DNA from: an uncultured Gammaproteobacteria bacterium | Lineage (GTDB): Bacteria; Patescibacteriota; Patescibacteriia; 2-12-FULL-57-11 | Assembly (NCBI GenBank): GCA_964648865.1 | Contig: CAZYLV010000004.1 | Location: forward strand, 2,740 to 66,739 | Reading direction: 5' to 3' | DNA length: 64,000 nt | Part shown: positions 42,982 through 64,000 of the stretch, piece after piece | How positions within the stretch are numbered: position 1 is the first letter of the stretch | How the letters are laid out: each line of letters opens with the position of its first letter | Made by a program: the position numbers and the translations under genes | Notes under the pieces: model-generated | What the model was told of the DNA's origin: nothing | Databases searched by the model: none | What the model saw: the letters and a program-made list of their open reading frames with translations, nothing else

Positions 42982-43228
42982 AGGGTCGGTTGCCGCTTCT
43001 GGCAGCAAACGCGAGACCCTATCACAAACCGCGGGTTTTGTCAACCCTGCGACCCCGCCGGGGAGATCGAATTCCTGGTAGCCGAAGACGATGCGGGCCA
43101 TAGAAAAACGGGGCCTGCTGCCCCGCGAAATCAAGCCGTTTCGCGACTCGTGGACACCTGGAATCTGCGGGCAAGAGCATACCCCGCCCCGGCGGACCTG
43201 TCGAGCCTGGTATCCACAGGCGAATTCG

Positions 43229-43780
43229 CTAAGGACGTTCTTGGTCGGTTTCCCATTCGCGTGGATTGTTTGCGATGTATGCGCGGATGGCATGGAGGTG
43301 GCGTTCGGACCGGATGATGCGTTCGTGGTAATTGCGTTGCCATATCGGTAAACCAAACGTGTCGCCGATCCTACTGATTCTGTGGGTCGTTATGGCCTTG
43401 AACGTACGTACCAATTCGCCCAGGTCCGGGGCGTCATAAATGTCGCCCCTACGACCGATGAAACGCCGTTGTCCGTAGGGGCGTGATTCATCACGCCCAG
43501 GTCCAGCCGGATCGGGAATCCACATGACGACACCATGGACATGATTGGGCATGACAACCCATGAATCGGGGATGGTCGGAAACCGATCCGACAGACGGCG
43601 CCACGTTTCATCCACGATCCGCCCGGCATCATTCAATCGCATTTCCCCGTCAACGACGTCGCCAAACAGGCATTCCCGGTGTTTGACCACGACCGTCACG
43701 AAATACGCGCCGGGAGAAGCGTAATCGAAACCGGGCAGGCGGATGGAGCGTCGCCGGTGGGTGTCCGGGTTGAAGGGCAT
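43229..43780 (-). mobile_element. REP-associated tyrosine transposase (RAYT; IS200/IS605 TnpA-like HUH Y1 transposase), apparently intact
   Basis: 183 aa with AYFVTVVV, the HUH motif MPNHVHGVV and the C-terminal WQRNYHERIIRSERHLHAIRAYIANNP (catalytic-Tyr region). Confidence 0.75.
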
Positions 43781-43885: not shown

Positions 43886-43961
43886 GCAGCGGTCGCTCAG
43901 CTGGTCGAGCCGGGGCCTCTTAAGCCCAGGGCCCTGGGTGCGATCCCCAGCCGCGGCACCA
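43886..43961 (+). tRNA. tRNA-Lys(CTT)-like gene with atypical features; possibly a pseudogene or tRNA-like element
   Basis: 76 nt with the cloverleaf foldable by hand. Acceptor stem gcagcgg/ccgcggc has one A-G mismatch. D-arm gctc/gagc with GG. Anticodon loop ctCTTaa. T-arm ctggg-tgcgatc-cccag has G55 instead of U. CCA is encoded, and a plus-strand terminator follows. Confidence 0.4.
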
Positions 43962-45771: not shown

Positions 45772-45846
45772 GCGCCCCTAGCTCAACGGATAGAGCTCCG
45801 GTCTTCGGAACCGGCGATGGGGGTTCGATTCCCTCGGGGCGCACCA
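45772..45846 (+). tRNA. tRNA-Arg (anticodon TCG)
   Basis: Acceptor gcgcccc/ggggcgc. D-arm gctc/gagc. Anticodon stem ccggt/accgg with loop ctTCGga. T-arm ggggg-ttcgatt-ccctc. Discriminator A and encoded CCA. Confidence 0.85.
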
Positions 45847-60742: not shown

Positions 60743-60800
60743 GTTCGTAGGGGCGTGATTCATCACGCCCGTCCGAGTTCCCAGCCGGAATCCGGCGCCA
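60743..60800. repeat. roughly 55 bp copy of an internal segment of the RAYT gene (hairpin ggggcgtga-ttca-tcacgcccc preceded by GTAG), spanning the tsaD stop and tsaE start
   Basis: 27 of 28 nt identical to 43471-43499 (gt[c/t]cgtaggggcgtgattcatcacgccc), then cagccgga and atcc/gg similarity with indels. Confidence 0.55.
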
Positions 60801-61794
60801 GCGTCAGCGGGTCGGCGAAACGCTTTTGCTTCAACGCGAAGTATCCGGCCGCGGCGATCATCGCGGCGTTGTCTGAGGTCCACGGCAGATCGGGCTCGGC
60901 ATAGCGCGCCCGCGGCAGGCGCTCGGCCACGGCCGCGGCAAGCAGCGTGCGCAGCCGCGTGTTGGCCGCGACGCCGCCGCCCAAGAGCACCGTCTTAGCA
61001 CGTGCTCTCTTGGCTGCGGCAATGGTCTTCGTCACGAGCACCTCGCAGACGGCTTCTTCGAACGACGCACAGAGGTCGGCGGGCTTGGGTTTCTTCCCCC
61101 GTGCTTCCAGGATGCCGCGCACCGCGGTCTTGAGCCCCGAGAAACTGAAATCGAAATCCCTAGAAGCGATCATCGGCCGCGGCAGCTTCACCGTGCGCGG
61201 ATCGCCTTTCCTCGCGAGTGCCGCGACGGCCGGTCCGCCCGGATACCCGAGCCCCAAGAGCTGCGCCACCTTGTCGAAGGCCTCGCCGGCGGCATCGTCG
61301 CGCGTCGCGCCGAGCAGCTCATACTGCCCGAGCCTCTTCACGCGCAACAGCTCGGTGTGTCCGCCGGAGACGATGAGCGCCACGGCGGGGAAAGCGATGC
61401 GCGGGTTGGTGAGCCAATTAGCGGCGATATGGCCCTCGATGTGGTTGACGGCCAGGAGGGGCACGGCGCGCCGTGCCCCTACAGACCAGAGCCAGGCCAA
61501 CGTACGGCCGACATCGACGCCGACACGAAGCGACGTGATGAGCCCGGGTCCGGCCGTCACGGCGATGGCGTCGGCCTTGGGGCGGCGCACGTCGCCGAGG
61601 AGCTTCTTCAGCACCGGGAAGATGGTCTCGGCGTGTTCCCGCGCCGCGACCTCCGGCACCACGCCGCCGTACTTCTTGTGGATCAGCACCTGGGAAGCGG
61701 TCAGCACCTTCTCCACACGGAACTTCCCACGCTCCGCCGTGAGGAGCGCGAGCGAGGTCTCGTCGCAGGAGGTTTCGATGCCCAGGATGCGCAT
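60763..61794 (-). CDS. tsaD: tRNA N6-adenosine threonylcarbamoyltransferase TsaD
   Basis: ATG 61794 (MRILGIETSCDETS...); the ORF track extends to 61941. Kae1/TsaD metal-binding HxEGH and GGVAAN motifs. Confidence 0.9.
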   Translation of the reverse strand: MRILGIETSCDETSLALLTAERGKFRVEKVLTASQVLIHKKYGGVVPEVAAREHAETIFPVLKKLLGDVRRPKADAIAVTAGPGLITSLRVGVDVGRTLAWLWSVGARRAVPLLAVNHIEGHIAANWLTNPRIAFPAVALIVSGGHTELLRVKRLGQYELLGATRDDAAGEAFDKVAQLLGLGYPGGPAVAALARKGDPRTVKLPRPMIASRDFDFSFSGLKTAVRGILEARGKKPKPADLCASFEEAVCEVLVTKTIAAAKRARAKTVLLGGGVAANTRLRTLLAAAVAERLPRARYAEPDLPWTSDNAAMIAAAGYFALKQKRFADPLTLAPDSGWELGRA

Positions 61795-61801
61795 GCAGGC
61801 G

Positions 61802-61830
61802 ATTGTACGGGCGAAACGGGGGCGAGACAA
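61802..61830 (-). promoter_or_regulatory. sigma70-type promoter (TTGTCT, 17 nt spacer, TACAAT) 7 nt upstream of the tsaD ATG; implies a leaderless mRNA
   Basis: Minus strand: ttgtct cgcccccgtttcgcccg tacaat cgcctgc ATG. Confidence 0.45.
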
Positions 61831-61934
61831 TACGCTTTTGTAGTCCCCGCACCCACACCAAAGAAAAGTGAGTGCGAGAGATTCGCCTTTGTTTAGAGCA
61901 AACTTTAACGCTTGTAGACAATGTAACTTAGTGA

Positions 61935-61963
61935 TTGACATTAGTTATGAGTGCATGTAAACT
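61935..61963 (+). promoter_or_regulatory. textbook sigma70 promoter (TTGACA, 17 nt spacer, TAAACT) in the low-GC island
   Basis: ttgaca ttagttatgagtgcatg taaact; about 20 nt upstream of the 61986 ATG. Confidence 0.5.
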
Positions 61964-61985
61964 GCTACTTGCTAATGTCTAAGCT

Positions 61986-63461
61986 ATGGCACTAATCGAT
62001 CGAGAGGAGGTTCTGAAGGTGCTTCGCGGATTCAATCCTTGGTGGGCCACTGGGAAAATTCCCGACTCCTTTCTCAAAAAACTGAAGAGAACACCATACT
62101 TTGAGGTGGAAAAGATACTCGACGTCGCTGGACTAAAGAGAGCGATTGTTTTGTCCGGTCCCAGACGAGTTGGGAAGACGACGATTTTGTATCAAATCGC
62201 CAACTCGGCGATTTACGAAAGACGGATTCATCCGTCGCAGGTGCTCTATCTAACCCTTGAACATCCGGTGCTGAAGCTGATGCCTATCGACGAGATCCTC
62301 AACATTTACGACCAAGAGATTGCTCCGTCCGGCAAAGAAAAGTGGGTGCTCCTAGACGAGCTCCAATACATTGATGAGCCGACTAAATGGCTGAAGATTC
62401 TGGTCGACCAGCACCCCGACTGGAAAATTATCGTCACCGGATCGGCAAGCATAGTTTTTCGATCGAAGGACAAGGAGTCTGGAGTCGGACGGTGGGTTAC
62501 TGTTCTGGTACCACCGTTGTCCTTCTACGAGTACATCGCCCTGAGACATGAAGAGCATAAAAATAATGTTACACCTCCAGAGATTCCTGAGGATGTAAAC
62601 CCTCTAAACCTTGGCGCTCTCAATTCGCGCGACCGACAACAGCTACTAAGCCAACTCAAACCGCTAAAAAGAGAGTTCAATACCTATCTACTTCAGGGCG
62701 GCTTCCCCGACACGGCACTTCAAGAAGACCTTTCACTCGCACAACGGCTGCTCAGAGAAGACATCGTCGACAAGGTTCTAAAGAGAGACATGGCAGCGTT
62801 TTATGGTGTGAGGAAACTACAAGAACTGGAGCGCCTCTTCGTTTACCTTTGCATCCACAATGGCGAGGTCGTAAACGAGCAAACAATCAGCAATGAGCTT
62901 AACATCAGTCGTCCGACAGTATCGTCACTTCTGAGAAACCTTGAAGGGGCACACCTTATAAGGCCATTGAGCGGACTATCCCTAACAGGGAAGAAGGCGT
63001 TGAAGGGGCGTGTCAAATGGTACCTAACTGACCCATCAATCAGAAACGCGGTTCTCCTTAGGGGAACAGAAATGTTGAATGATCCACGGGATTTGGGGAT
63101 GGTCGTAGAATCAGTGGTAATTAACCAGTTGGCCACATACTCGTACCCCACCAGGCCTAGGCTTGGTTATTGGAAAGACAGGAAGGGTCGTGAGGTGGAC
63201 CTAATCATTGATGCACCGACAAAAAAACGTGTTGCGGTTGAGGTTAAGTATCGAGAGGATCCGAGAATCAGCTCTGACGATGGAATGACTAGATACCTTG
63301 AGGGCAATCCGGATGCCCAAGGCATTGTTGTTACTAAAGACGCTGAAGACTTTGAGACCCAGGCAGCAAATAACGGACAATGGTCTGTAACCTTAATCCC
63401 AGCATACGTCTTTCTCTATATCTTGGGGCATTTTGAACGCCGTAGACATAAGAAGGTTTGA
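61986..63461 (+). CDS. AAA+ ATPase of the AAA_14/DUF4143 (COG1373) family
   Basis: 491 aa with Walker A GPRRVGKTT, Walker B WVLLDELQ and a C-terminal DUF4143-like region. Local GC is about 48% against about 70% in the flanks. Confidence 0.8.
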   Translation: MALIDREEVLKVLRGFNPWWATGKIPDSFLKKLKRTPYFEVEKILDVAGLKRAIVLSGPRRVGKTTILYQIANSAIYERRIHPSQVLYLTLEHPVLKLMPIDEILNIYDQEIAPSGKEKWVLLDELQYIDEPTKWLKILVDQHPDWKIIVTGSASIVFRSKDKESGVGRWVTVLVPPLSFYEYIALRHEEHKNNVTPPEIPEDVNPLNLGALNSRDRQQLLSQLKPLKREFNTYLLQGGFPDTALQEDLSLAQRLLREDIVDKVLKRDMAAFYGVRKLQELERLFVYLCIHNGEVVNEQTISNELNISRPTVSSLLRNLEGAHLIRPLSGLSLTGKKALKGRVKWYLTDPSIRNAVLLRGTEMLNDPRDLGMVVESVVINQLATYSYPTRPRLGYWKDRKGREVDLIIDAPTKKRVAVEVKYREDPRISSDDGMTRYLEGNPDAQGIVVTKDAEDFETQAANNGQWSVTLIPAYVFLYILGHFERRRHKKV

Positions 63462-63531
63462 AACCCTGGACAGAATCCGAGACTCCGAGTAAGTCAGGGG
63501 GCAGGTCTTCACAACAGAAAGGACCGAGGCG

Positions 63532-64000
63532 ATGGAACGGTTGGTCATCGAGAAAACGCTCGGCATCCCGGCCGAGGAGGTGCTCGCCAAACAGCACAAC
63601 CTCTGGATGGGCATCAGCAACAGCGGATGGTTCGAGGAACATCTCGAACAGATCGTGCTCTGGGCACTCGCCCACACCAAGGAGAAGCTCCTGGTCGTCG
63701 TGCCCGGTCGGCTGTGGGCGGTCAACCTCCACCACGTCGACAAAAAGAGCCGCGCCCGCGCGCTCCGTCTCGCCTTCGCCAAGGAGGCGCAGTACTATAA
63801 GCGGATCCACGACGCGCTGCCGGCGGACGCCGAGGGCCGCGTGCGCATCGTCGGCTACGACGAAATCCTGACGGCCGGATACGTCCACTGGCGCGAGCTG
63901 TTCTACCGCGCCTTCAGTGAGGAAGGGCCGTTCTACGACCGCGTCATGGACATCGCGCGGGACTACCTCGCCAGCCGAGGCCGCACGATCAACAAGGACC
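63532..64000 (+). CDS. cyclodipeptide synthase (CDPS)-like protein, partial (C-terminus beyond the window end)
   Basis: N-terminal 156 aa align by eye to AlbC-type CDPS: HNLWMGISNSGWFEE (compare HALIGISAGNSYFSQ), ...IVLWALAH..LLVVV (compare VMLLQWAGQRF..VVYVD), and later RVRIVGYDEIL...YRAFSEEGPFYDRVMDIARDY. Confidence 0.45.
   Translation, partial: MERLVIEKTLGIPAEEVLAKQHNLWMGISNSGWFEEHLEQIVLWALAHTKEKLLVVVPGRLWAVNLHHVDKKSRARALRLAFAKEAQYYKRIHDALPADAEGRVRIVGYDEILTAGYVHWRELFYRAFSEEGPFYDRVMDIARDYLASRGRTINKD

Follow-up and report, generated by a model that had tools for sequence, protein, structure and literature searches.

A low-GC ATPase-nuclease gene beside tsaD in a GC-rich Patescibacterium: a probable acquired single-gene cassette of the PDC-S01 family

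The 64,000-nucleotide stretch of uncultured bacterial DNA analysed here (contig CAZYLV010000004.1 of assembly GCA_964648865.1, positions 2,740 to 66,739; hereafter the window, in whose own numbering positions are given) raises the question of how a single gene of low guanine-plus-cytosine (GC) content came to lie between tsaD and a cyclodipeptide synthase (CDPS) gene of a GC-rich genome, how long it has been there and what its product may do. The data suggest that it is probably a single-gene cassette, acquired from a lower-GC Patescibacteria source and inherited vertically since, which carries its own promoter and encodes an ATPase-nuclease of the PADLOC type PDC-S01, similar in principle to nucleoside triphosphate (NTP)-dependent restriction enzymes. 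That a gene of this kind should be acquired horizontally is nothing unusual, and the family is known and very abundant; what is modestly new here are the exact bounds of the transferred unit, its presence under strong constraint since before a split of lineages, and a clade-specific promoter/operator motif. The two features concerned are the following.

61825..63556, no strand: low-GC segment, the probable acquired cassette (change-point fit, GC profiles, tetranucleotide z = 14.2)
61986..63461, + strand: ATPase gene, 491 aa, AAA_14 + winged helix + DUF4143 nuclease, PADLOC PDC-S01 (open reading frame (ORF), Pfam, PADLOC)

The GC content in 200-nt windows is 0.63–0.77 until about position 61700, falls to 0.42–0.52 at 61800–63500 and is again 0.63–0.69 by 63600–63900, while no 1-kb block elsewhere in the window lies below 0.597. 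By a two-change-point likelihood fit the segment spans 61825–63556, with GC 0.480 within and 0.664 without, and it is the sole such dip in 64 kb; the original prediction, made from the letters of the window, had reported a drop to about 48% over 61850–63480, and its limits prove to be off by no more than about 80 nt. In 300-nt windows excluding the segment the mean GC is 0.683 (standard deviation (SD) 0.038, minimum 0.557) against a minimum of 0.433 inside it, and in tetranucleotide composition the segment stands 14 SD (z = 14.2) farther from the remainder of the window than host chunks of 1.5 kb. It carries one long ORF only, the ATPase gene at 61986–63461 (+), and the codon usage of this gene is foreign as well, as had been proposed. 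Its GC at third codon positions (GC3) is 0.52 (0.57/0.36/0.52 by codon position) versus 0.79–0.97 in about 50 host ORFs, an index of the codon adaptation index (CAI) type based on host codon usage is 0.195 versus 0.721 ± 0.087 for host ORFs (z = −6), and AGA accounts for 35% of its arginine codons versus 1% in the host.

An abrupt composition switch of this kind might arise from assembly or binning, through joining of a low-GC fragment onto a high-GC contig, and several short-read contigs do end near the left junction. Nevertheless, the Logan contig L001 (6567 nt) covers both junctions and shares 2730 nt with the window without a single difference, the right junction is covered by three further assemblies from other runs, the junctions being identical in these four assemblies, and both junctions are reproduced in a diverged orthologous locus, L085. 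The probability of a chimera is thus practically negligible. It may be supposed instead that the gene is native and that selection or function holds its GC low with no transfer having occurred; indeed, the homologues found in hosts of 0.52–0.68 GC all lie at 0.46–0.55, which could be a composition intrinsic to the family. The difference from the host, however, falls mostly on synonymous third positions and on codon choice, the AT-rich non-coding upstream region is anomalous too, and the comparisons with syntenic relatives and distant hosts described below also speak against a native origin, which we regard as most unlikely.

The native genes on the two sides of the segment are the following.

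60763..61794, − strand: tsaD, left flank, 343 aa (Pfam TsaD, 1.5e-81; GC3 0.80)
63532..64000, + strand: CDPS, right flank, running off the end of the window; 234 aa in L001 (PF16715, 2.2e-10; GC3 0.88)

The gene order at the locus is gyrA, S1-domain protein, ftsH, membrane protein, pilB-type ATPase, tsaE and tsaD, followed downstream by CDPS, a GNAT acetyltransferase gene and PNP. The best matches of the TsaD protein of the window are in Patescibacteria metagenome-assembled genomes, at 82% identity (L005, FW602_bin.41) and 73% (L006) and then at 55–59%, and the host is therefore a Patescibacterium of unusually high GC. Its GC is about 68%, with GC3 of up to 0.97; Patescibacteria (the candidate phyla radiation) are usually far less GC-rich. 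Both L005 and L006 retain the order membrane protein–pilB–tsaE–tsaD, and on the other side homologues of PNP and p137 are present in L005 only and that of p84 in both. A tblastn search of the fetched L005 and L006 stretches yielded no ATPase, CDPS or GNAT. An exact look-up of the window TsaD, intended to reach contigs without the insertion, returned no record. The comparison of the locus beside tsaD, which had been proposed as a check, thus finds the gene missing from the nearest relatives, and the situation that was to count against acquisition, the same gene with the same composition in all relatives, is not seen.

Apart from one close homologue (P0001, 92–93% identity, considered below), about 12 proteins are 49–59% identical to the window protein and are followed by a large set at 41–47%, whose named members are mostly from Bacillota with a few from other phyla. 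The 49–59% clade is represented by eight distinct, non-orthologous loci with DNA (L086, L088, L100, L101, L102, L103, L104 and L105) and a ninth without DNA. In every one of these loci the gene is solitary, which is also the single-gene layout of PDC-S01, and is surrounded by housekeeping genes, a different set in each locus (for example S16/KH/trmD, S20, EF-P, S6-SSB-S18, a split PEP-utilising enzyme or uvrD). The clade hosts are Patescibacteria-like contigs of 0.43–0.62 GC. Of the 13 loci measured, 12 have a gene poorer in GC than the flanking DNA, and the same applies to seven of the eight distinct loci of the clade; the 200 nt upstream of the homologues have a GC of 0.24–0.55, mostly 0.29–0.43. 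Locus L088 also encodes TsaD and TsaE, its TsaD being closest to Patescibacteria sequences, which marks its host as a Patescibacterium; compared with the window, its ATPase is 54% identical while its TsaD is only 47% identical. An accessory gene that evolves faster and is nevertheless closer than the universal TsaD accords with transfer among Patescibacteria. The homologue search, suggested in order to identify a donor, therefore leads to other, lower-GC Patescibacteria-like contigs and unrelated contexts, and to judge from these sequences the source was likely a lower-GC (43–50%) Patescibacterium. The wider family includes 287 plasmid records (identity at most about 30%) and 11 unannotated metagenomic records named 'Bacteriophage sp.'; no relative was found among the IMG/VR viral contigs searched, and a scan of JGI metagenomes returned relatives at 39–43% only.

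We consider the gene horizontally acquired because its composition and codon usage are foreign, because it is absent from the two nearest relatives that retain the pilB–tsaE–tsaD synteny, because its nearest homologues reside in lower-GC Patescibacteria-like contigs in unrelated contexts, and because in L088 the ATPase is more similar than TsaD. The insertion between tsaD and the CDPS operon would have taken place in the ancestor that two or more high-GC Patescibacteria lineages have in common and would have been followed by vertical inheritance under strong purifying selection, with a composition that is still far from that of the host.

The original prediction had further held the acquisition to be recent, and in this respect it needs revision. 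The closest homologue, P0001, comes from a different sequencing run and lies on contig L085, where the layout (tsaD start, AT-rich spacer, ATPase, CDPS, GNAT) places it at the same site as in the window; the GC of the L085 ATPase gene is 0.49 versus 0.68 in its flanks. Nei–Gojobori estimates of synonymous (dS) and non-synonymous (dN) divergence between the window and L085, with omega as their ratio, were as follows.

ATPase: dS 0.43, dN 0.036, omega 0.083
CDPS (native): dS 0.36, dN 0.095, omega 0.26
GNAT (native, partial): dS 0.37, dN 0.14, omega 0.39

The dS of the ATPase gene is not lower than that of its native neighbours, and the gene was therefore already present in the common ancestor of the window lineage and L085; the omega values indicate that it has been kept since under strong purifying selection, stronger than that acting on the native neighbours. 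At four-fold degenerate sites the ATPase gene has a GC (GC4) of 0.489 and 18.6% of differences between weak and strong bases (W/S), compared with 0.936 and 8.6% in the native genes. Under the host process a two-state model predicts 22–29% of W/S differences and puts the ancestral GC4 at roughly 0.3–0.4, although, resting on 12 native W/S differences, it is too imprecise for dating the transfer. These figures are compatible with slow, ongoing amelioration of the gene.

A very recent, strain-level acquisition after the split from the closest relatives might still be favoured for two reasons: the GC3 of 0.52 remains about 0.4 under that of the host, which implies very little amelioration, and in three samples the Logan contigs stop at the left boundary of the segment. 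The presence of the gene at the same site in L085, which stems from a different sample, and its dS of 0.43 versus 0.36–0.37 in the flanks contradict this. As to the breaks, the short-read contigs of four runs (L002–L004 and L085) end in the first codons of tsaD (MRILGIETS; about 61766–61769), that is, within conserved N-terminal codons and in L085 too, and the ends are more likely due to a k-mer common to co-occurring relatives, heterogeneity of the population at this junction being a less likely cause. Very recent entry is accordingly very unlikely; the acquisition is genuine but not recent at the strain scale.

What the gene encodes can be described in some detail from its sequence and a predicted structure. 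Residue conservation was read from an alignment with 40 homologues of 41–93% identity, which gave, together with the model, the following features.

62157..62183, + strand: Walker A, GPRRVGKTT, residues 58–66 (G58 and R60–K64 invariant; T65 and T66 nearly so)
62355..62360, + strand: Walker B, D124-E125 of VLLDE (residues 121–125), invariant
62817..63026, + strand: winged helix-turn-helix, residues ~278–347 (three helices and a two-strand wing in the model)
63084..63401, + strand: PD-(D/E)XK nuclease domain, residues ~367–472 (E375, D405, E419 and K421; model fold)

The ATG start is supported by the N-terminus MALIDREEVLKVL, which is conserved among homologues. Pfam AAA_14 matches residues 51–183 (8.6e-29, 100.6 bits, cut-off 27) and DUF4143 residues 266–423 (1.4e-32, 113.1 bits, cut-off 28.1), in this order and both above the gathering thresholds, as is characteristic of COG1373. 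The assignment of the 491-residue product to AAA_14/DUF4143 proteins of the COG1373 type in the original prediction is thus correct by Pfam and can be refined to PDC-S01: seven PDC-S01 models of PADLOC match in total, the best of them, PDLC04787, at 3.3e-55 over residues 41–458 and positions 17–393 of its 412 (91%), which is near full length. An NCBIfam search gave no meaningful match for the ATPase.

The Walker A and Walker B motifs conform to the GxxxxGK[ST] and hhhhDE patterns of P-loop NTPases, and the motifs TGS (151–153) and ESGVGR (164–169) are likewise invariant in the alignment. Sub-threshold Pfam helix-turn-helix matches (Crp, MarR, TrmB) fall at residues 286–344. Within the C-terminal part E375, E403, D405, K421 and Y422 are invariant and E419 is conserved in at least 90% of the sequences, which makes up a textbook E...D...ExK signature; these residues sit on helix H367–383 and strands E403–409 and E416–420 of the model. 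The predicted catalytic residues of both the ATPase and the nuclease are all intact.

The full-length AlphaFold2 model has a predicted local distance difference test score (pLDDT) of 89.9 and a predicted template modelling score (pTM) of 0.90. Compared with the Protein Data Bank (PDB) by Foldseek, the full chain matches Apaf-1, CED-4, ORC4, Cdc6/Orc1, RuvB, clamp-loader subunits and a plant NLR (NRC3), with probability 1.0 and template modelling (TM) scores of just 0.22–0.38; for the modelled chain these matches suggest an arrangement of nucleotide-binding domain, lid and winged helix. The C-terminal 134 residues modelled alone (pLDDT 87.1) have the alpha-beta-beta-beta-alpha-beta (H-E-E-E-H-E) core expected of the nuclease fold. 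Their best PDB match is McrC (E-value 3e-3 to 6e-3, TM 0.49–0.57), and further fold matches are DdmD, SfsA, NucS/EndoMS, Card1, Cas4-like and VRR-NUC proteins, with E-values from 3e-3 to 0.8; all of them are PD-(D/E)XK nucleases. No sequence relative was found among the solved PDB structures, McrB and McrC included.

DUF4143/COG1373 has been listed as family 100 of a survey of the PD-(D/E)XK superfamily, with function unknown (PMC3424549). PDC-S01 is one of 145 candidates obtained by 'guilt by embedding', the genes having been found inside BREX, DISARM and type I restriction-modification loci (Payne et al., 2024 preprint, bioRxiv 10.1101/2024.01.29.577857). It is reported to rank fourth in frequency among the defence calls of prokaryotes and to consist of an ATPase joined to a PD-(D/E)XK domain. 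Our literature search (AAA_14, PF13173, PF13635, DUF4143) found no paper testing PDC-S01, and DUF4143 appeared in only three papers. With its seven hidden Markov model matches, single-gene layout and ATPase plus PD-(D/E)XK architecture the window protein agrees with PDC-S01, and nothing sets it apart from the family. What is specific to this locus within PDC-S01 is the high-GC Patescibacterium host, the footprint of transfer in composition and a clade-specific promoter with TTAGTAA half-sites.

Like McrBC, the protein appears to combine an NTP-driven motor of the AAA+ type with a PD-(D/E)XK nuclease, for which McrC is the best solved match. McrBC, however, consists of two subunits, the GTPase McrB and McrC, whereas the window protein is one polypeptide for which the PDB sequence search gave no hit to either; its ATPase resembles the ORC/Cdc6, Apaf-1 and clamp-loader folds and not McrB, and it displays a winged helix while no McrB-type N-terminal reader of modified DNA was identified in it. 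It is therefore not a member of McrBC proper. The immune and related NTPases of the STAND and ORC/Cdc6 type (Apaf-1, CED-4, plant NLRs, Avs) have a nucleotide-binding domain followed by a helical lid and a winged helix, an order to which the model of the window protein also points, and some Avs proteins carry an effector nuclease fused in the same chain, as the window protein would. It differs from STAND proteins in having no repeat-type sensor (TPR, WD40, LRR), and with TM-scores of only 0.2–0.4 it can be called STAND-like at most. By analogy, the winged helix and the ATPase module would bind nucleic acid, presumably DNA; binding or hydrolysis of ATP would switch the protein, as happens in ORC/Cdc6 and STAND proteins, to another conformation or oligomeric state; and the switch would license the PD-(D/E)XK nuclease to cut DNA. 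The protein would then attack phage or plasmid DNA much as NTP-dependent restriction enzymes of the McrBC kind do, but within one chain. Restriction of such DNA is the likeliest of the roles considered, at somewhat less than even odds.

The same architecture might serve a cellular factor engaged in DNA transactions or regulation, such as an ATP-dependent transcription regulator or a repair nuclease, in which case the defence label would be misleading. The likeness to ORC/Cdc6 with a winged helix, the extreme abundance of the family, the annotation of one plasmid homologue as an ArsR-family regulator and the head-to-tail position relative to CDPS–GNAT with no terminator between would all agree with such a role. 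The invariant catalytic residues of the nuclease, the patchy, transfer-prone, single-copy distribution with absence from close relatives, and the derivation of the PDC call from embedding in restriction-modification and BREX loci do not, and this alternative appears quite improbable. Somewhat less remote, but still unlikely, is a selfish or mobile-element-associated module (a self-spreading nuclease or an addiction-type gene) rather than a host defence. The gene is always solitary, in a context that differs from genome to genome, usually at lower GC than its host and with a conserved promoter of its own; the wider family occurs on the 287 plasmid records, and the defence role of PDC-S01 has candidate status only. 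On the other hand, no terminal repeats, target duplications or mobility genes were found at the locus, no second copy of the gene is present in the 64-kb window, the viral contigs searched hold no close relative, and the position has remained stable and syntenic through a dS of 0.43 at an omega of 0.08. We retain the restriction-like ATPase-nuclease, vertically inherited after its acquisition, as the preferred interpretation.

A new point concerns the control of this gene. The elements involved are the following.

61935..61963, + strand: sigma-70-type promoter TTGACA-17-TAAACT of the ATPase gene (unique in the window; 0/100 shuffles)
61928..61934, + strand: putative upstream half-site TTAGTGA (consensus TTAGTAA), abutting the −35 hexamer (motif specificity, enrichment)
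61969..61975, + strand: putative downstream half-site TTGCTAA (consensus TTACTAA), 6 nt after the −10 hexamer, over the expected transcription start

The original prediction described the promoter as a perfect one at the very start of the segment. It does exist, but it agrees with the sigma-70 consensus at 10 of 12 positions, the −10 hexamer matching TATAAT at only four of six, and it lies about 110 nt inside the segment. Between the window and L085 identity is 59% in the spacer beside the tsaD promoter (61816–61882), 85% in the ATPase promoter and 5' untranslated region (61883–61985) and 89% in the coding sequence (61986–63461). Both promoter hexamers are identical in L085 despite four substitutions in the 17-nt spacer between them, and TTGACA stands at the same relative position in nine of ten clade loci. 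The predicted promoter thus travels with the gene as a part of the cassette.

The upstream regions of the 49–59% clade have TTAGTAA directly 5' of TTGACA, and TTAGTAA or its reverse complement TTACTAA a few nucleotides 3' of the −10 hexamer, so that the clade promoter can be written as TTAGTAATTGACA-N17-TAnAnT. The 12-mer TAGTRATTGACA is present in 11 of 102 loci, each time just upstream of the ATPase gene, and the remainder of these roughly 1.3 Mb, largely from Patescibacteria, has no further copy. Within 120 nt upstream of the gene, six independent loci together contain eight exact half-sites versus 0.44 expected, a count reached by none of 2000 shuffles, and L103, L104 and L105, which were fetched after the motif had been defined, all carry it at the expected places. 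Both half-sites are perfect in L085. With the downstream half-site over the expected start, the arrangement looks like an operator bracketing the core promoter, and the half-sites probably form an operator that holds the nuclease under tight control. Reading of this operator by the winged helix of the protein itself is speculative. A distant PDC-S01 subclade of 39–41% identity (L094:4546–4745, L095:1186–1385, L098:5021–5220) has a conserved upstream palindrome of its own, CCAAGTACACTTGG, and a different recognition helix (SNTTTVGNHL); the comparison of recognition helices across subclades speaks neither for nor against autoregulation. A bolder proposal would see the PDC-S01 genes of the TTAGTAA-TTGACA...TTACTAA type as self-contained, self-regulated mobile immune cassettes, their promoter-operator read by the winged helix of the protein and the whole spreading among Patescibacteria without a mobility gene, be it through natural transformation with illegitimate or microhomology-mediated insertion, or through insertion aided by the encoded nuclease, either of which could serve. 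This is unlikely; if true, the unit could function at once in hosts of 43% to 68% GC.

As to the way in which the cassette may have entered, the segment resembles classical genomic islands in its atypical composition, sharp boundaries and absence from relatives, but differs from them in being 1.7 kb long, with one gene and with no integrase, adjacent tRNA/att site or conserved direct repeats. No integrase or transposase was found near the gene, the neighbours being those of the gene order listed above. No tRNA lies within 16 kb of the segment, the nearest being at 45772, and an Rfam scan of the segment returned no RNA family. The repeat search in the window and the comparison with L085 gave no credible pair of flanking direct repeats beyond a 15/17 match of CCCACACCAAAGAAAAG (61852) with CCCACACCAAGGAGAAG (63671), which was rejected: its right copy falls within the CDPS gene, some 140 nt in, and L085 does not retain the pair. 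We therefore agree with the original prediction that integrase and flanking direct repeats are missing.

Several of these observations weigh against the interpretation of the locus as an acquired, restriction-like cassette with its own operator. No mechanism of insertion is visible, although integrase, transposase, nearby tRNA and conserved direct repeats were sought, and the assignment of the donor rests on a handful of metagenomic contigs. The structural matches are remote, with full-length TM-scores of 0.2–0.4 and nuclease-domain E-values of 3e-3 or weaker. The defence label of PDC-S01 rests on embedding statistics, and no known defence genes stand beside the ATPase, only a second low-GC candidate about 3 kb downstream. 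Both half-sites of the window have one mismatch each, and within the TTAGTAA clade the recognition helix is variable though the half-site is conserved, which disfavours autoregulation.

The PDC-S01-type family is among the most frequent 'defence' calls in prokaryotic genomes, and the locus alone adds little to that. The 20-point GC contrast nevertheless marks out the transferred unit, a promoter and one gene of about 1.7 kb in total without mobility genes, and the orthologous copy in the sister lineage indicates that the gene was retained under an omega of 0.08 after the transfer. Although the proteins of the different hosts are just 50–59% identical, the promoter and its candidate half-sites have been conserved among them, and the locus thus offers a concrete regulatory element for characterising PDC-S01. 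Furthermore, it provides an example of genes passing between Patescibacteria lineages that differ greatly in base composition.

The surroundings of the cassette provide some minor observations. The promoter of tsaD appears to have been undisturbed by the insertion.

61802..61830, − strand: tsaD promoter-like site TTGTCT-17-TACAAT (−10 hexamer conserved in L085)

Its TACAAT (61802–61807) ends about 8 nt from the tsaD ATG (61794), and the tsaD transcript may have little or no leader. On the other side, the GNAT gene (GC3 0.95) begins 2 nt after CDPS, and the two continue in L001:2262–3409; both are of native composition. The stretch separating the stop of the ATPase gene from the start of CDPS contains no terminator-like site, so read-through is possible and the acquired promoter may drive CDPS–GNAT. 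A functional coupling of the ATPase with CDPS–GNAT was considered and set aside, since CDPS adjoins the ATPase in none of the eight non-orthologous loci and both genes are native in composition.

Near the homologues, a bAvd-like gene and a reverse-transcriptase gene, a pair resembling a diversity-generating retroelement, lie 2–3 kb downstream in L100 (7159–8576), and RelB/YafQ and BrnT/CopG toxin-antitoxin pairs are found about 3 kb away in L088 and L102. Within the window, a tRNA at 43886–43958 (+; Rfam, 45.4 bits; missed by ARAGORN) adjoins the only other GC dip (43201–43600, minimum 0.557).

In L005 a DUF1361 membrane-protein gene (L005:9297–9983) abuts tsaD instead, and with different genes adjoining tsaD this slot appears variable among relatives. 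A TMEM260-like glycosyltransferase gene (L005:5693–7438) lies between the p137 and PNP homologues of the same relative, at the place where L001 has a second solitary low-GC gene. The latter (L001:4689–5552, +), about 2.4 kb past the 3' end of the window and between PNP and p137, encodes 287 aa with a GC of 0.43, a GC3 of 0.48 and a CAI-like index of 0.20. It has no Pfam match but weak PADLOC matches to PDC-S18 (3.8e-7) and PDC-S11, and contains a D...ExQ/K-like motif, 'GRLDLLL...YEVEIQLGK'. The interval from tsaD to p84 thus holds two separate foreign single-gene insertions.

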